From Escherichia coli (GTDB taxonomy: Bacteria; Pseudomonadota; Gammaproteobacteria; Enterobacterales; Enterobacteriaceae): DNA of 64,000 nt. The position numbers were made by a program, and so were the translations under genes. The notes under the pieces are model-generated. The model had not been told where the DNA came from, searched no databases, and saw nothing but the letters and a program-made list of their open reading frames with translations. The DNA is taken from NCBI RefSeq assembly GCF_003334765.1, contig NZ_QOWT01000002.1; one strand, given 5' to 3'. Below are positions 15,493 through 21,677 of the stretch, one piece after another; position 1 is the stretch's first letter; the number at the start of each line of letters is the position of its first letter.

Positions 15493-16188
15493 TTAATAAA
15501 GCAGTGAACCAAGCAGACCGATACCAGCACCGATACCAGCACCCCACGGAGTTGATGAACCAATTAATTTCGCAAGTCCAGCCCCAGCAATAGCACCAGA
15601 CGCACCTCCGCCAATAGCAGATTGCATTGCTGATGGTCTGTTGGCATTTGCCGCTGCAAGAGCCGCACTTTGCTGCGAAATCTGACTCATGTTGTTGGCA
15701 TATGTCTGCCCGGCGTTTGCCTGACCTTGCAGTGCGCCAAGACCAATATTTGCCAGATTCTGGTAGTTGTTCATCTGACCAGATAGCCATTGCTGACCAA
15801 GCGTTGGTGCGATTGTTGCTAACTGATTACCGGTTGCAGTGGAACCCAATCCACCTGTTGCTTCCGCTGCCGCCAGACTCTGATAGCGAGCCTGACCAGC
15901 AAGATCTTTGTACTGCTGAGAGTTGTAATACTGGTTAAGTGCCTGACCTTGCCCTTCCAGAGACGATAAGTTCTCGAGGCTGCCGACATACTTATCAGCC
16001 AGAGGAGTAAACGGCTTCAGGTTGTTCATGATGGTGTTGAACTGCTGATTTTGCAGGTCTGCGGCATACTTCTGAGCTTCTGCTGCATACTTTGCGCTTT
16101 TATCAGAACTGCCACCTTTCCCGCCTTTTTCAGGGCAATAAGGTTCCTCGCCGCGCAGTTTTCTGCCCAGCTTAAATGCATATAACAT
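15493..16188 (-). CDS. Ejection protein, P22 gp7-like (C-terminal 231 codons of the 460-aa ORF)
   Basis: From MLYAFKLGRKLRGEEP... the ORF is Q/N/G/A-rich with a Gly-rich hydrophobic C-terminus; length matches P22 gp7 (about 229 aa). Confidence 0.45.
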   Translation of the reverse strand: MLYAFKLGRKLRGEEPYCPEKGGKGGSSDKSAKYAAEAQKYAADLQNQQFNTIMNNLKPFTPLADKYVGSLENLSSLEGQGQALNQYYNSQQYKDLAGQARYQSLAAAEATGGLGSTATGNQLATIAPTLGQQWLSGQMNNYQNLANIGLGALQGQANAGQTYANNMSQISQQSAALAAANANRPSAMQSAIGGGASGAIAGAGLAKLIGSSTPWGAGIGAGIGLLGSLLY

Positions 16189-16875
16189 GGCTAACGCCGA
16201 GATGCCGTATTGCGCATAGCTCATACAATCAATTTCGCCTTCGCAAAGTACAACCGCCCTCACGCCAGCGTCCAGAGCCTGCCATCCGAACAGACAAGGT
16301 TCGCAATCACCTTCTGCCATAATGACTTTCTTCCCGTCCGGGCGCTCAGTGCTGATTCGCTTGACCTGCAACAACTCACCATCGCGTTTGTACGGAATCA
16401 CCAGAGCATCCAGTTCTCGCTCTCCATTCCACACCTTGCCGCTGACAACCTCGTAGCGCTTTACGATTTCTGGCGATATGCCACGCGATTGCAGGTACTC
16501 AAGATGGGATTCTGTTCTGGTAACGTAGCGGGCGATTTTCTTGCGATCAGGTCTGGAGAATTTCTTCTCACGTCTGGCATCGAAATGGTGATCGTCATCC
16601 TTGATACCGAGAAATGCTTTCGCTTCCTGCATAGCCTGATGCAGGTTAATTCCACGACATGCCATCCACAAATCAAGCATGTCACCGCCGTCTCCCTCAG
16701 CGAAATCAGCCCATTTTTTCTTGCCGCTAAGGTTGACCTTAAGGCTGTTTCCCTTGTCACCGTTGACGTTACCGGCAACCCACTCATGCCCCTCTTTCTT
16801 GCCGTTTGGCAACAGGTGCGGAGCCACCCTGTCAACCTGCGCCCAAAGCAGGTCGCTAAGTTCACTTGGCGTCAT
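16189..16875 (-). pseudogene. Truncated toprim-domain DNA primase (N-terminal 229 codons) fused in frame to the gp7-like gene
   Basis: Degenerate zinc-finger-like WADFAEGDGGDMLDLWM then toprim motif VVLCEGEIDCMS; no downstream DxD motif; directly follows O-like gene. Confidence 0.5.
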
Positions 16876-16982: not shown

Positions 16983-17843
16983 TCACCTGTCGAAAAACAC
17001 GTAGCCAGTTTTCGATACGGTGATTGCGGATGATGGTTTGGATTGTGGTTGAATGGTTTCTGGCTTTTCGTCGTTCCAGCGCTGACCGTTCAGGTAGCTC
17101 GATGGTAACAACCTGTCGAATCCGAACTGCTTACCATTCCTGCATGCGATGTCTTCTGCCAGCATCGTGGCAAACTCGCTTGCCGTACCCCTGGTAGTTT
17201 TACGCCATTCCCTGAACTGTGTTCTGAATGCCGAAGCTGCGTTTTTCTTCCCGGCTTTCCGCATGCCTGCACACCAGAATATTTCCTCGAATGCCTTGTC
17301 GGTTTCTTCGTGACGGTCAGGTGATTTTTCACACTCCGTCCGAACACTTTCGGACATAGTGTTTTTATTATTTCTTTTTTCTTTTGTAATAGTTTCTTTT
17401 GTGTGTCCCTGTTTTGGTGACAGCGCTGTCACCGTTTTGGTGACACTTTTTGTCACCAATGCGGTGACATTATCACCAGAGTAGTGACACCCTTCGATTT
17501 GCCATTCCTCGATGTTCTTGTTAGGCCCGATTTGCTGGCCTTCGCGAAGGATAACCTTCATCGCGATAAGCTCATTCTTGGCCTTGTTTACCTTCTGTCT
17601 TGGCAGCCTGGTAATTTGAGCTAACTGACTATCAGAGATGCGATCCATCTTTTTACCGTAGCCGTATGTTTTACGGCATATGGCGTGGGCAACCTTGCTC
17701 TGATTTTTCGTTAAATCTGCGCCGATAAGCTCTTCATACAGGGCATTTGCAAGACGGGTATAACCATCTTCAACTTCTGCCACACGACGCTCCACAGGCC
17801 GTTGTGAAGGCCTTAAATGTGTTACGGTTGCAAGATTACTCAT
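16983..17843 (-). CDS. Replication initiator, lambda O-like (P22 gene 18-like)
   Basis: 286 aa; follows cII; iterons and AT-rich stretch lie inside the gene as in lambda ori. Confidence 0.65.
17359..17490. other. Phage replication origin: GGTGACA/TGTCACC iterons plus adjacent AT-rich region inside the O-like gene
   Basis: TTTTGGTGACAGCGCTGTCACCGTTTTGGTGACACTTTTTGTCACCAATGCGGTGACATTATCACC next to TTTTTATTATTTCTTTTTTCTTTTG. Confidence 0.6.
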
Positions 17844-18016
17844 GACCTTTCTCCTTCTGCATCAGCTTCACTTTTTCCAACTCAGCCCGGAATCGACCAG
17901 GCTGCTTGAAGCTGGACAGGAAGCGATCACGTAGTATGTGTTTGTGAATTTTGTCCTGGTAAGGACTGAGTTGTTTTGTCATAATGACTCCTGTGGATTG
18001 ATCCAGTCTTTCTACA

Positions 18017-18295
18017 TCAGGCCTCGAAGAATTCGCCGTTCTTCGGGGCTTTTTCTTTTGTCAGCATTCTGGCTACTTGCTTAGCCAGTTCCGCCAACTC
18101 CTCGTCTTCAACACCCCATTCAAGAACAGCAAGAAGCATTCCCATTTTGGGGATGAAGCTGTCTTTCCATCGCGAAATTTGCGATTCATTAATCCCTAAC
18201 GCGTCGGCAACCTTTCGCTGACCACGTACAGCAATTCGATTCAGGATGTTGCTTGTAATTGCATTCGCTTTCTTGCGAGTACTTGTAAGTTGCAT
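18017..18295 (-). CDS. CII-like transcriptional activator
   Basis: ...[46 protein letters not shown] resembles lambda CII ...[25 protein letters not shown]. Confidence 0.8.
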
Positions 18296-18353
18296 ATGTA
18301 AGTATTTCCTTAACTAATAAGAAGTTATGCGCATCAACTTATGCGCGTTGTAT

Positions 18354-18397
18354 TCCCGCATTTCGGCGGGAATGAGGACCATGACTGTTAAAGAGCG
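18354..18397 (-). promoter_or_regulatory. nutR: boxA CGCTCTTTAACA (18386..18397) and boxB hairpin TCCCGC-CGAAAT-GCGGGA (18354..18371)
   Basis: Read on minus strand just downstream of cro; boxB identical to the nutL copy. Confidence 0.6.
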
Positions 18398-18403
18398 GTG
18401 TTA

Positions 18404-18604
18404 CTATTTGTTTTTCTTGTTGCTTGGGAAAGGACGAACTTCCTCTCCAATCACACTGCCATCAGGCTTTACCGTAACCATAATGTTACGGCCTGCCAGA
18501 ATGGCCTTGCTGATAGCGCACTGGATTACACCAAAGTCACTGGCTGCTTTAGCCTGTCCATGGATTTTGGCGTAATCGGCAAGTGTCATTCGAATCATAT
18601 GCAC
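18404..18604 (-). CDS. cro: Cro repressor
   Basis: ...[59 protein letters not shown] resembles lambda Cro. Confidence 0.85.
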
Positions 18605-18629
18605 TCTCCGTTATTAACCATGAACAAAG

Positions 18630-18693
18630 AATACTACAGGTATTCAAAGCAATCAATACTCAGGGTATTTTTAGTTTAAGTACCTTAGCTATT
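18630..18693. promoter_or_regulatory. OR operators: AATACTACAGGTATT (18630..18644), AATACTCAGGGTATT (18655..18669), variant AGTACCTTAGCTATT (18679..18693)
   Basis: 15-bp palindromes at about 24-25 bp spacing between divergent cro and cI. Confidence 0.6.
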
Positions 18694-18704
18694 AGAATTA
18701 AGCT

Positions 18705-19421
18705 ATGGAAAATAAAAAATCACTGACGACAGAACAGCTCGAAGACGCTAAGCGGCTTAAGGCTTTGTATGAGTCAAAAAAGAAAGAATTGGGAATAACC
18801 CAATACTCAATCGCTGATGAACTGGGTATCACCCAAGGAGCGGTAGGGCATTATCTTAATGGCAGAAACGCGCTAAACGTTGAGGTCGCATCTGGTTTTG
18901 CACGTTTGTTGCAAGTCTCAATTGCTGATTTTAGCCAGTCAATTGCTGCCAAGGTTGCAGAACAGGCAGAAAGCCTTAAGAGCGATGCCAACGTAAGGTA
19001 TGCAGGGGAATACAGAGCAGGAAAGAGGTATCCGGTGTTAAGCAGTATCCAGGCTGGCTCGTGGTGTGAAGCATGCGAACCATACACCATTAAAGACATA
19101 GATGTTTGGCTTGAGTCTGACGCGCATATTCAAGGTAATGCGTTCTGGCTTAAAGTGGAAGGTGATTCAATGACGGCACCGGTTGGGTTAAGCATTCCAG
19201 AGGGAACATTCGTTCTTTTCGATACCGGAAGGGAGGCGATCAACGGCAGCTTGGTCATAGCAAAACTTTCTGACTCTAACGAAGCAACATTCAAGAAGCT
19301 GATAATCGACGGCGGAAATAAATACCTCAAGGGACTTAACCCTGCATGGCCTCTCGTGCCAATCAATGGAAACTGCAAGATTATAGGCGTTGCAATTGAG
19401 ACAAAACTAAGGCTGGTTTGA
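18705..19421 (+). CDS. cI: CI repressor (HTH plus S24 LexA-like autopeptidase domain)
   Basis: 238 aa; N-terminal HTH (QYSIADELGITQGAVGHYLNG), C-terminal ...KVEGDSM...ATFKKL; no SD before ATG, consistent with a leaderless pRM transcript. Confidence 0.85.
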   Translation: MENKKSLTTEQLEDAKRLKALYESKKKELGITQYSIADELGITQGAVGHYLNGRNALNVEVASGFARLLQVSIADFSQSIAAKVAEQAESLKSDANVRYAGEYRAGKRYPVLSSIQAGSWCEACEPYTIKDIDVWLESDAHIQGNAFWLKVEGDSMTAPVGLSIPEGTFVLFDTGREAINGSLVIAKLSDSNEATFKKLIIDGGNKYLKGLNPAWPLVPINGNCKIIGVAIETKLRLV

Positions 19422-19440
19422 TCACGCAAGGGGGGCGCTT

Positions 19441-19809
19441 ATGGTTGGAACCGCTATAGCAAGCTTTTTGGGGATGTTGGCAATCTCAACAATTTACGGC
19501 TTAGCGCATGCTTTTATTGCGAAATCTCTATCAGAAAAAATAAGCCAGGCTTGGGCGCATAGATCAGCTCGTTTCATGATTCTAGTGGTCATAGCAATAC
19601 AAGGGATATCTGCATTTATCCTCTATGGATCAAGCTTATACCTGTTGTATCAAGGAGCGACATTTACGCCTTACACCAGTGATTACGGAACTCTATACGA
19701 TGGTAGTGAAGACATCTCTATGGCTTGGATCGTCTTTGGTTTATCTATGGCCGTGTCTGTTGTAGCAGACATCATTAAGGTAATTCTCGTCTTAACCTTC
19801 GCTGACTAA
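19441..19809 (+). CDS. Small 3-TM membrane protein co-transcribed with cI (rex-locus position); candidate exclusion/abortive-infection factor
   Basis: 122 aa, three hydrophobic helices, strong SD AAGGGGGG 19 bp after cI stop. Confidence 0.6.
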   Translation: MVGTAIASFLGMLAISTIYGLAHAFIAKSLSEKISQAWAHRSARFMILVVIAIQGISAFILYGSSLYLLYQGATFTPYTSDYGTLYDGSEDISMAWIVFGLSMAVSVVADIIKVILVLTFAD

Positions 19810-19895
19810 CCCATAATCCCGGCAGCAATAGCTATCGGGATCCACTTCACATATCCCGCATAAAAAGCACTGAACAAGCAGATACCGAAAAAATA

Positions 19896-19980
19896 AATAT
19901 CCTTTGTATTCATTTGTTTATCATTATTTCATCAAAAATAAATACCTTGGGTATTTACACAATAAAATACCTACAGTATT
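19896..19980. promoter_or_regulatory. OL operators: AATATCCTTTGTATT (19896..19910), AATACCTTGGGTATT (19941..19955), AATACCTACAGTATT (19966..19980); pL region
   Basis: Same AATAC-N5-GTATT palindrome family as OR, upstream of the N-like gene. Confidence 0.55.
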
Positions 19981-20028
19981 CTTTAGCCATCAGCAGGACG
20001 CTGGAAGCCAAACGGAACAGATTGGCAG

Positions 20029-20069
20029 GCTCTTTAACATTGATGGGATTGTCCCGCCGAAATGCGGGA
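20029..20069 (+). promoter_or_regulatory. nutL: boxA GCTCTTTAACA (20029..20039) and boxB hairpin TCCCGC-CGAAAT-GCGGGA (20052..20069)
   Basis: rrn/lambda-like boxA followed 12 nt later by 6-bp stem hairpin identical to nutR boxB. Confidence 0.6.
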
Positions 20070-20176
20070 ACCAAAGAGTAGTTGGCTTTGGGGTGACGTG
20101 AAGTGCAGCTGCACGACGGCAACCGGAAGATAAGCACCCGGCGCGTCACCGCCAAAGCCAATCATCGGAGGTCAAC

Positions 20177-20473
20177 ATGATAATCGTTACTTATCTGGCT
20201 GATGATAACACCAGAAATCGCCGCAGAGCACGCAGACAGGCTCAACGTGAACAGGCAATGCAAGAACAGCGACTTGCGCGAAAAATTGCGCTAAAGCTCT
20301 CTGGTTGCGTCAGAGCAGATAAAGCAGCATCACTCGGAAGCCTTCGCTGCAAGAAGGCAGAAGAAGTCGAGCGTAAACAGAACCGTATTTACTACCGCAA
20401 GCCACGCAGTGAAATGGGTGTGACTTGTGTTGGTCGCCAGAAAATGAAATTAGGCAGCAAACCACTTATTTGA
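20177..20473 (+). CDS. N-like transcription antiterminator (arginine-rich motif)
   Basis: 98 aa; N-terminal ARM DDNTRNRRRARRQAQREQ; strong SD GGAGG; first gene after pL/nutL. Confidence 0.65.
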   Translation: MIIVTYLADDNTRNRRRARRQAQREQAMQEQRLARKIALKLSGCVRADKAASLGSLRCKKAEEVERKQNRIYYRKPRSEMGVTCVGRQKMKLGSKPLI

Positions 20474-20481
20474 GGTGAGAT

Positions 20482-20952
20482 ATGACAAAATCATGGAGCG
20501 TACCTTTTCCTGAATCAGAAACTGAACATGATGGAATGCCTGTTTTCTGGAGATTCCAAGCGACAGTTGAAGAAGATGGAATCAAAATATTCGCACTTCA
20601 ATATATAGCTTTTCATCAGACAGAGCATTATGCATGGTTGGTTCCTGCGCATTGGATTGTTGATTTTAAACCAGCACCAAATCAGTGGTTACAGGAATGG
20701 AAACAAAAGAGAAATAGATATGCAATTAAGAAAGTAGCAAAAAATGCAGAAAGATCTTTTGCATTCCCAACGAAGAAACTTGCCATTGAAAGTTTATTGC
20801 GCCGGAAGAAATACCATTTAATGAGAATAAAACAAGATTTGGCTGTTGTATCAACTCTTGTTGATGGGATGAAAAATATTGATACATCAACACCAGATAT
20901 TGAATATAACTTTGGACACAACCAAGAAACAGAAAATTGGGTATTTTATTAG
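20482..20952 (+). CDS. Hypothetical protein, AT-rich, unknown function
   Basis: 156 aa ORF immediately after the N-like gene; no recognisable motif. Confidence 0.5.
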   Translation: MTKSWSVPFPESETEHDGMPVFWRFQATVEEDGIKIFALQYIAFHQTEHYAWLVPAHWIVDFKPAPNQWLQEWKQKRNRYAIKKVAKNAERSFAFPTKKLAIESLLRRKKYHLMRIKQDLAVVSTLVDGMKNIDTSTPDIEYNFGHNQETENWVFY

Positions 20953-21056
20953 TACGAATAAGCACTGTGTATTCATTCCAACGAGTGAATACACGGAGCA
21001 ATGTCGCTCGTAACTAAACAGGAGCCGACTTGTTCTGATTATTGGAAGTCTTCTTT

Positions 21057-21084
21057 GCCCTCCGATGTGAGGGCTTTTTTATAT
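21057..21084 (+). terminator. Rho-independent terminator (GCCCTC-CGATGTG-GAGGGC + T6)
   Basis: GC stem followed by TTTTTT; candidate tL1 overridden by N. Confidence 0.65.
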
Positions 21085-21164
21085 GCATACCAATAACGCT
21101 TCACGAGAGGTGTTTATTCATGAGCGTAAACGCTGATTAATGAACGCAGTTGATAGGATATAAA

Positions 21165-21677
21165 ATGGCATTTATAAAGATTCTTGAATTAATTTCCCTA
21201 AGTGAGATTAATAATGTTGTCAAATATAACCCTATTTCTGGTGAGTTCACATGGCTAAAATCTTATGGAGCAAGAAAGATAGGTGGAACTGCCGGAACAA
21301 TAACAACAAGCGGCTACTTAAGGATTTTCATTAACGGAAGACACTATGCTGCACATAGACTTGCATGGATTATCACTTTCGGTGTTGAGCCTGAAGGTAT
21401 TATCGACCATATAAATGGCATAAAGACAGATAACAGAATTTGCAATCTGAGGCTTGCAACTTACTCACAGAATTCAATGAATAGTAAAATAAATACCCTC
21501 AACAAATCAGGTTGCAAAGGAGTCACATGGAAGAAGGAAAGTAGAAAGTGGGCTGCCTATGGGAAATTAAACGGGAAGAAAAAACATCTAGGGTACTTTA
21601 ATGAATTAGAAGATGCCAAAAAAGCTTACTGCGACTTTGCCAGAAAGCATCACGGCGAATTCTACAGGAGCAAATAA
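21165..21677 (+). CDS. HNH endonuclease with AP2-like DNA-binding domain
   Basis: HINGIKTDNRICNLRLATYSQN HNH motif; C-terminal GVTWKKESRKWAAYGKLNGKKKHLGYFNELEDAKKAY AP2-like; ORF track starts at TTG 21150. Confidence 0.7.
   Translation: MAFIKILELISLSEINNVVKYNPISGEFTWLKSYGARKIGGTAGTITTSGYLRIFINGRHYAAHRLAWIITFGVEPEGIIDHINGIKTDNRICNLRLATYSQNSMNSKINTLNKSGCKGVTWKKESRKWAAYGKLNGKKKHLGYFNELEDAKKAYCDFARKHHGEFYRSK

Follow-up and report, generated by a model that had tools for sequence, protein, structure and literature searches.

The window, that is, the whole 64,000-nt stretch of Escherichia coli DNA analysed here, carries the early region of a lambdoid prophage in which cro, cII and cI surround two nut sites in the lambda order (Table 1). 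The first site, nutL, lies about 40 nt past the start of the pL transcript (~19989, mapped by alignment from the start annotated in phage 21) and 107 nt 5′ of a gene for a 98-residue protein. The second, nutR, is located between cro and cII. In both operons boxA, spacer and boxB follow each other in the same order relative to transcription. A sequence-only reading had proposed nut sites in both early operons, one boxB hairpin common to them and an N-like protein whose sequence includes an arginine-rich motif. These proposals are borne out: the sites are identical to the nutL and nutR features in the GenBank record of phage HK620, the hairpin occurs exactly twice in the window, each time 3′ of a boxA, and the protein matches PHROG 271 and aligns with known N proteins.

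Table 1. The nut sites, the N gene and the adjacent early-operon features of the window.
Feature	Position	Strand	Evidence
nutL boxA GCTCTTTAACA	20029..20039	+	direct reading, pattern search; alignment to phage 21 'boxA-L'
nutL boxB hairpin UCCCGC-CGAAAU-GCGGGA	20052..20069	+	within HK620 'nutL' feature; reading, pattern search, fold
nutR boxA CGCTCTTTAACA (rrn-type CUUUA)	18386..18397	-	within HK620 'nutR' feature; reading, pattern search
nutR boxB hairpin UCCCGC-CGAAAU-GCGGGA	18354..18371	-	identical in HK620 and mEpX2; reading, pattern search, fold
N antiterminator gene, 98 aa	20177..20473	+	PHROG 271; alignments
pR promoter region, drives cro-nutR-cII-O transcript	18621..18656	-	homology to HK620 pR feature (locus L001, 1822-1857)
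cro, directly 5′ of nutR in the pR transcript	18404..18598/18604	-	ORF; PHROG 35 transcriptional repressor, E = 2.5e-12; HK620 cro at homologous position
cII, first gene 3′ of nutR	18017..18295	-	PHROG 191 CII-like activator, E = 1.6e-37
cI	18705-21	+	flanks the sites together with cro and cII
pL promoter TTTACA-17-TATTCT	19954..19982	+	promoter scan; HK620 pL feature (locus L001, 3153-3188)
Long N-leader stem-loop between nutL and N ribosome-binding site	20081..20165	+	MFE fold, z = -3.0
Intrinsic terminator, pL operon, GCCCTC-CGATGT-GAGGGC + T6	21057..21080	+	terminator scan

The rrn-type boxA GCTCTTTAACA is exact at both sites (at nutR in 18386-18396). Its (C/G)GCUCUUUAACA element includes the rrn-type GCUCUUUA, a putative NusB/NusE site by consensus match. 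For comparison, boxA reads UGCUCUUUA in rrn and CGCUCUUA in lambda, and the CUUUA of the rrn type is thought to enhance antitermination (PMC2724277). Single boxA 11-mers with at most one mismatch are not rare in the 64-kb window (3 found, 1.36 expected), and a third boxA-like match with one mismatch at 61044-61054 is at chance level and lacks a hairpin. Two exact copies, each 5′ of a hairpin and oriented alike with respect to the transcript, are far beyond chance. Direct reading and a pattern search agree on exactly two copies of TCCCGCCGAAATGCGGGA, and no further copy with up to two mismatches is present in the 64-kb window (0 expected from 100 shuffles). The repeat had been described as an identical 18-nt hairpin; the identity holds, and the length is 19 nt (TCCCGCCGAAATGCGGGAA). 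The spacers, given earlier as 12-14 nt, measure 12 nt in nutL (20040-20051) and 14 nt in nutR (18372-18385).

RNA folding had been suggested as a check, and it recovers the hairpin with its 6-nt loop in the MFE and centroid structures at both sites. The predicted stem comprises 6 bp in nutL; in nutR, flanking AU/AU lengthens it to 8 bp (18352-18373). For the short nut RNAs the fold z-scores, -1.3 and -1.5, do not stand out. A short fold also paired the nutL boxA with AAAGAG at 20073-20079; this pairing is gone in the longer leader fold and absent at nutR. An Rfam scan of 17800-21300 (E ≤ 10) returned no nut family and only chance-level microRNA, lncRNA and similar matches.

Further elements of the early operons could be placed by homology and by folding. 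The pR promoter was located through the collinearity of the window, in this part, with the HK620 locus L001 (offset 16799). The HK620 record has tR1 straight after nutR, which corresponds to the interval between nutR and cII. Downstream of nutL, the long stem-loop of the N leader is kept in four leader variants despite differing upper-stem sequences, and it is probably the counterpart of the RNase III hairpin in the lambda N leader. The terminator that had been named at 21057..21084 is confirmed by the terminator scan as a canonical intrinsic terminator, with hairpin and T-run at 21057-21074, and RNA polymerase modified by N is likely to act on it.

The N reading frame is intact and has GGAGG as its ribosome-binding site; its match to PHROG 271, 'anti-termination protein N-like', has E = 4.7e-35. 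A Pfam search returned N_peptide (PF25694) only, at E = 0.01, while NCBIfam gave no match for N of the window, of HK620 or of phage 21. The arginine-rich motif DDNTRNRRRARRQAQREQAM occupies residues ~9-28 (nt ~20201-20260), with NTRNRRRARRQAQREQ at residues 11-26. Judged by alignment, the protein is a mosaic of an HK620-type arginine-rich N-terminus and phage-21-type residues 32-98. Its central region, the part in which a lambda-type N binds NusA, is the same as in phage 21 N and does not align to lambda N 34-47. The C-terminal 67 residues end in a motif common to lambda N: against chain N of PDB 6GOV, from the antitermination complex, residues 61-98 fall on lambda N 74-110 (E = 1.2e-4), along RK..R..YSKP…G(I/V)TC.GRQK.K…PLI.

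The closest annotated counterparts of the sites are found in phage HK620, for which the reference is Clark et al. 2001, J Mol Biol 311:657. Its record (AF335538.1) annotates 'nutL; putative N-utilization leftward' and 'nutR' at the sites of the window, and boxA, spacer and boxB of both are base-for-base identical. Identity amounts to 98% over the region and 98.3% over the immunity region, and both genomes share the order cII-nutR-cro-cI-hkaS-pL-nutL-N. The arginine-rich motif of HK620 N equals that of the window save for A12T and the first five residues. From about residue 62, however, the HK620 protein is H-19B-like (…CLPNVAIYAAGYRKSKQLTAR) whereas that of the window is phage-21-like (…VERKQNRIYYRKPRSEMGVTCVGRQKMKLGSKPLI); the identity thus does not extend over full-length HK620 N, whose H-19B-like C-terminus is missing here, and the genes 3′ of N differ as well. 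The mEpX2 record annotates a 'putative Nut boxA' at both sites. In mEpX2 an identical boxB pair accompanies this arginine-rich motif, which is joined to a P22-like C-terminus, and motif and boxB therefore behave as an exchangeable module. In both phages the hairpin keeps its boxA context.

The two nut sites and N of the window very probably belong to a lambdoid (P22-like) prophage of the HK620 type and would act like the lambda N system. The N/nut reading of the sites and of the 98-aa gene is well supported, and from it we infer the antitermination function. The system is one already known: a module of the HK620 type that has been annotated since 2001 and is widespread among prophages of E. 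coli; its class occurs in roughly 8-10% of the complete genomes of this species. The class is recognized by boxB UCCCGCCGAAAUGCGGGA at both nut sites and the motif DDN(A/T)RNRRRARRQAQREQ, and both are present here.

The partnership of hairpin and motif was followed through about 200 public loci, comprising 80 IMG/VR loci picked by the N protein alone and 120 stretches picked by the hairpin alone. Across them the two always co-occur. In the 80 loci, 151 of the 152 boxA-linked hairpin copies are exact and the sole variant has U1 changed to C, which merely opens the outermost pair; nearly all of these loci have a hairpin pair in opposite orientation. In the 120 stretches, an N reading frame with the same motif lies 3′ of every copy in nutL context. 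The co-occurrence persists over at least three unrelated N C-termini, two cII types, three contexts at the end of cro, swapped immunity regions, and spacings between nutL and nutR of about 1155, 1697, 1740 and 2990 nt. Where the same leader and boxA carry the phage 21 hairpin (loop CUAACC), this always stands 5′ of the phage 21 motif, and no crossed motif-boxB pair was seen among the compared HK620-type and phage-21-type leaders. About 35 related loci seemed to break the link, with other hairpins just 5′ of N after a boxA-like TGCTCTT; these loci contain inserts of 100-500 nt 3′ of an HK620-type nutL that is itself intact, and they have the cognate hairpin pair as well. Two limits apply to this survey. 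At nutL the linkage could be physical rather than selected, as boxB and motif are only ~125 nt apart, and independent support comes from nutR only. Moreover, so invariant a hairpin contains no compensatory base-pair change that would prove its stem.

The arrangement suggests the following course of events. Once the repressor is lost, RNA polymerase starting from pL (+) and pR (-) would transcribe boxA and then boxB, and the boxB RNA would fold into a hairpin whose 6-bp stem carries the loop C-GAAA-U. The arginine-rich helix at the N-terminus of N (…NTRNRRRARRQAQREQ…) may bind this hairpin, while the rrn-type boxA may be bound by NusB/NusE (S10), with NusA and NusG joining. Tethered by the RNA loop, the C-terminal part of N, which resembles that of phage 21 and lambda, would then engage the polymerase and render it resistant to terminators. 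Read-through would be predicted at the 21057-21080 terminator in the pL operon and in the tR1 region of the pR operon.

How specific such recognition might be is a separate issue. In phage 21 boxB, UAAC forms a mimic of a GNRA fold and is flanked by C·C. By analogy, GAAA in the present loop could be a true GNRA tetraloop, with C·U as the flanking pair. Tentatively, we propose that the HK620-type pair, with the motif …NRRRARRQAQREQ… and the hairpin UCCCGC-C[GAAA]U-GCGGGA, forms a fourth peptide-RNA specificity class, orthogonal to those of lambda, P22 and phage 21; we consider this nearly as probable as its negation. In such a class the hexaloop frame of phage 21, a pyrimidine·pyrimidine pair around a four-base fold, would hold a genuine GNRA tetraloop in place of the UAAC mimic and would be read without a tryptophan stack. 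Alternatively, the nut sites are real but N specificity is relaxed or overlapping, extending for instance to the GAAAA or GAAGA loops of the lambda type, and no separate class exists. The motif core RRRARR-QAQ does resemble RRRERR…QAQ of lambda, the loop contains GAAA just as the lambda GAAAA does, and P22 and lambda reportedly overlap in what they require of boxB (Cocozaki et al. 2008, as cited in PMC8022706). Nevertheless, the hairpin is invariant wherever the window-type motif occurs, its stem, closing pair and loop length are all unlike lambda, and N of the window has no equivalent of lambda Trp18 at the aligned position. We therefore regard relaxed specificity as unlikely.

A different doubt concerns the state of the prophage. 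It spans only ~20 kb between tRNA-Arg and dsdC, and in the ORF at 15493-16875 (-) the N-terminus of a primase/helicase is fused in frame to a DNA-ejection protein, which implies loss of the nin, Q, lysis, terminase, portal and coat genes. The prophage is thus defective, and since its late genes (Q, lysis, head) are deleted, the switch in this genome no longer controls a productive lytic cycle. N and its nut sites could accordingly be decaying leftovers, a non-functional relic. The deletion, however, lies outside the N/nut module: N, cro, cI, cII, both boxA and both boxB are intact and match the viable phages HK620, HK630, HF4s and vB_EcoP-611R6 at 98-99%. The exact 98-aa protein is found on 42 contigs and recurs unchanged in an IMG/VR locus (L004), which also argues against decay and makes the relic reading rather improbable. 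That the repeated hairpin, a near-perfect DNA palindrome on either side of the immunity region, is some other symmetric signal (a terminator or attenuator, or a palindrome bound by protein as DNA) and not the N target is extremely improbable, because neither copy is followed by a T-run or called by the terminator scan, the loop, which is asymmetric, and the boxA 5′ of it keep transcript order at both sites rather than the order of one DNA strand, the HK620 annotation lists OL1-3 and OR1-3 separately, as 17-bp operators, and the hairpin type switches with the arginine-rich motif and not with the type of repressor or operator.

The N/nut reading, as preferred here, has several uses. A gene labelled 'hypothetical protein' in NCBI bacterial records can be re-annotated as N antiterminator, with nutL and nutR defined to the base. 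The module also presents a natural modular exchange, in which the end of N that recognizes RNA travels with both of its RNA targets while the polymerase-binding end, the repressor, cro and cII are swapped independently. In the searched literature we found no binding, antitermination or structural experiments on the HK620-type N/boxB class, whose HK620 sites are known from GenBank features ('putative'); the one point of some value is that the class is common in E. coli yet has no biochemical or structural report there. If it is indeed a fourth class, it would offer a ready-made extra tethering pair and a natural intermediate for studying specificity shifts between arginine-rich motifs and boxB.

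Among the known systems, P22 has its own boxB with a GACAA pentaloop and a different motif, and phage 21 boxB consists of a 6-7 bp stem with the hexaloop CUAACC (PMC12550061). The 6-nt loop is indeed unlike the pentaloops of lambda and P22, as the sequence-only reading had stated; a novel architecture it is not, given the hexaloop of phage 21. Lambda follows the same design, with boxA, spacer and boxB after pL and after cro and with N as the first gene of pL. Lambda and the window also have in common the RRR.RR core and, in the loop, a purine-rich GAAA. Lambda boxB, in contrast, has a 5-bp stem with the pentaloop GAAAA or GAAGA against the 6-bp stem and hexaloop found here; its boxA is weaker (CGCUCUUA), its spacer is shorter, and the middle of its N is unrelated. 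We conclude that the switch in the window is an ordinary antitermination switch which adds no new principle.

Phage 21 (OL657228.1) is matched in part. From the transcript start through boxA it is base-for-base identical to the pL leader of the window, with a similar distance between boxA and boxB. Codons 32-98 of its N share 97.6% nucleotide identity with the window, as opposed to 48% for codons 1-31, which encode the arginine-rich motif (GTAKSRYKARRAELIAERR in phage 21, NTRNRRRARRQAQREQAM in the window). The boxB sequences are only 39% identical, and the stems of nutL and nutR differ from each other in phage 21 but not in the window. The phage 21 specificity class, CUAACC hexaloop plus GTAKSRYKARRAELIAERR, is therefore not the one present here. 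For phage 21, PDB 1NYB is the NMR structure of the N peptide with boxB. The hairpins of phage 21 and of the window nonetheless share one frame: a stem of 6-7 bp carries a hexaloop that begins and ends with a pyrimidine, filled as C-UAAC-C in phage 21 and as C-GAAA-U in the window.

The gene order around the sites is that of the lambda immunity region, with the plus strand as the 'leftward' one (see table). A sequence-only reading had described the same hairpin once on each strand, near cro and an N-like gene, as the boxB of matched nutL and nutR sites. Pattern search indeed retrieves exactly two copies of TCCCGCCGAAATGCGGGA, whose identity extends over 19 nt, i.e. one base beyond the hairpin. 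No further copy with up to two mismatches is present across the window, and none is expected by chance. Each hairpin is preceded by a boxA at the proposed spacing of 12–14 nt. RNA folding agrees with this picture as the hairpin appears in the minimum free energy and centroid structures of both nut RNAs, with a predicted stem of 6 bp at nutL and 8 bp at nutR and a six-base loop (CGAAAU). A T-run 3′ of the hairpin is absent in both cases and the terminator scan calls neither.

Features of the prophage and its immunity region, with positions in the window
Feature	Position	Strand	Remarks
tRNA-Arg(CCU)	5556-5630		followed by the integrase
460-aa fusion ORF	15493-16875	minus	in-frame fusion of two proteins
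O-like replication gene	16983-17843	minus	
cII	18017-18295	minus	
Strong intrinsic terminator	18019-18051	plus	antisense to the cII 3′ end
nutR hairpin	18354-18371	minus	between cro and cII
nutR boxA, CGCTCTTTAACA	18386-18397	minus	14 nt upstream of the hairpin
cro	18404-18598	minus	
LexA-like cI repressor	18705-19421	plus	
122-aa membrane ORF, hkaS-like		plus	after cI, before the promoter-like site
Promoter-like site	19954-19982	plus	ahead of the nutL hairpin
nutL boxA, GCTCTTTAACA	20029-20039	plus	12 nt upstream of the hairpin
nutL hairpin	20052-20069	plus	
Long leader stem-loop	20081-20165	plus	between the nutL hairpin and the N ribosome-binding site
98-aa ORF (N)	20177-20473	plus	ribosome-binding site GGAGG
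156-aa ORF, PHROG 1636 (unknown function)		plus	between the 98-aa ORF and the terminator
Canonical intrinsic terminator	21057-21080	plus	after the 156-aa ORF

Earlier annotations already include the element. Over 2.2 kb, the region shares 98-99% identity with coliphages HZ41, vB_EcoP-611R6, HF4s, HK620, HK630, HK140 and mEpX2. The HK620 record (AF335538.1) carries 'nutR; putative N-utilization rightward' and 'nutL; putative N-utilization leftward', which by coordinate transfer correspond to 18352-18397 and 20028-20069 in the window; pL, pR, OL1-3, OR1-3, tR1 and N are annotated as well. The mEpX2 record marks a 'putative Nut boxA' at both sites, and alignments of nutL and nutR reveal no base difference among the window, HK620 and mEpX2. 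The sites found here had thus been annotated before, with a putative function. The element is also common: among 5,426 complete E. coli genomes, 411-525 carry the segment comprising nutL and the arginine-rich motif, and so do 277 phage records.

The 98-aa protein matches PHROG 271 'anti-termination protein N-like' (E = 4.7e-35). Together with the coinciding HK620 annotation and the co-occurrence of motif and hairpin, this match supports the proposed nutL/nutR sites and N-like protein. Its C-terminal 38 residues align to residues 74-110 of lambda N in the antitermination complex 6GOV (E = 1.2e-4), the part of lambda N which engages RNA polymerase. NCBIfam models match neither this protein nor the N proteins of HK620 and phage 21, and Pfam N_peptide matches it weakly (E = 0.01). 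Bacterial records at NCBI, UniRef and ENA list the exact protein, found on 42 contigs and in a cluster of 1223 members, as 'hypothetical protein', which leaves a common prophage regulator poorly annotated.

Judged from its sequence, N is a mosaic that joins an HK620-type segment with the arginine-rich motif (residues 1-31, MIIVTYLADDNTRNRRRARRQAQREQAMQEQ) to a segment nearly identical to phage 21 N (residues 32-98). Compared with phage 21, all 55 of 55 positions from the transcript start through boxA are identical; identity is 50% in the spacer, 39% in boxB, 74% in the N leader, 48% in N codons 1-31 and 97.6% in codons 32-98. In contrast to this phage-21-like tail, the C-terminal tail of HK620 N is H-19B-like and that of mEpX2 N is P22-like.

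Since the hairpin is invariant, stem covariation offers no information and natural recombinants were examined instead. Among 80 IMG/VR loci picked solely by N-protein similarity, 151 of 152 boxA-linked hairpins have exactly the HK620-type sequence. Nearly all loci with enough flank hold one copy upstream of N and a second one farther upstream in opposite orientation. In 120 IMG/VR stretches picked solely by the exact hairpin, each hairpin in nutL context lies ahead of an N ORF that carries the motif NARNRRRARRQAQREQ. These stretches combine at least three unrelated types of N C-terminus, two types of cII (one being lambda cII) and three types of cro 3′ end. Their nutL-nutR distances (~1155, 1697, 1740 or 2990 nt) indicate different immunity regions. 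In loci that share this leader and boxA but have the hairpin of phage 21 (loop CUAACC), the N encoded downstream always has the phage 21 motif GTAKSRYKARRAELIAERR, and no crossed combination was seen among the compared loci with this leader and boxA. As the nutL hairpin lies ~125 nt from the motif codons, linkage alone could account for its pairing. NutR, however, is located across an exchangeable immunity region and yet always matches, which argues more strongly that hairpin and motif are under selection as a cognate pair.

L058 (IMGVR_UViG_2731957842_000007) is the only locus among the 80 in which an N gene with the HK620-type motif lacks a cognate hairpin in the 3.5 kb ahead of it. The sequence upstream of this gene is unrelated, and the locus is probably a rearranged prophage. 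Other hairpins just upstream of N, seen in about a third of loci, were considered as exceptions to the pairing and rejected: they lie in inserts that follow an intact nutL of HK620 type. Such inserts of 100-500 nt occur between nutL and N in about one third of related prophages (e.g. L010 at 3270-3470, and upstream of N in L007, L018, L026 and L034). In some of them another boxA-like element runs directly into a different hairpin, TGCTCTTCC-ATCCCCGTCTAATTGGCGGGGA or TGCTCTTTCT-GCCCCTCAGTTCGAGGGGC, and the two could form an additional nut-like site with a different specificity. Others enclose a short ORF.

The leader stem-loop (z = -3.0) is kept in four variants (the window, phage 21, L026 and L034) whose upper-stem sequences differ in a compensatory manner. 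At the base of the structure, ACC (20070-20072) pairs with GGU of the Shine-Dalgarno sequence. It seems to correspond to the lambda N-leader hairpin for RNase III and translational control. About 150 nt upstream of N, the L030 leader harbors ~20 tandem GTCAC copies within the stem region, and L068 and L073 have 2-3, possibly a repeat whose length varies within a regulatory leader. The terminator antisense to cII has a 14-bp stem and a T-run, with a CATAAT −10-like element ~40 nt upstream. It sits where lambda encodes its oop antisense RNA and likely belongs to an oop-like RNA.

The surrounding E. coli chromosome comprises fadL, mlaA and the tRNA-Arg gene, then the integrase and a P22-like prophage to ~25.5 kb, followed by dsdC, dsdX, dsdA and an EmrB-family (DHA2) efflux permease. 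The fusion ORF joins a primase/helicase N-terminus (residues 2-228; PHROG 239, profile positions 9-216 of 801) to a complete DNA-ejection protein (residues 230-458; PHROG 598). The fusion implies loss of the nin, Q, lysis, terminase, portal and coat genes. The prophage is thus defective, and the N/nut module within it is intact.

By homology with lambda, nascent pL and pR transcripts would present boxA and boxB. The arginine-rich helix of N would bind boxB and NusB/S10 would bind boxA, with NusA and NusG joining afterwards. The C-terminal part of N would then modify the polymerase, which could read through the terminator after the 156-aa ORF and the tR1 region after nutR. The boxA has the CUUUA of the rrn type, a form considered to make antitermination stronger (PMC2724277).

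The residual value is modest and lies in an N-boxB specificity class with putative function, for which no experimental study was found in the searchable literature. The six-base loop had been set apart from the lambda and P22 pentaloops. This difference holds, as lambda boxB has the pentaloops GAAAA or GAAGA and P22 boxB likewise a pentaloop, but the architecture is not distinct: phage 21 boxB also combines a 6-7 bp stem with a hexaloop, CUAACC. In the phage 21 NMR structure 1NYB, a C·C pair flanks the central UAAC, whose four bases fold much like a GNRA loop (PMC12550061). On this model, the GAAA of C-GAAA-U may be a true GNRA tetraloop, with C·U as the flanking pair.
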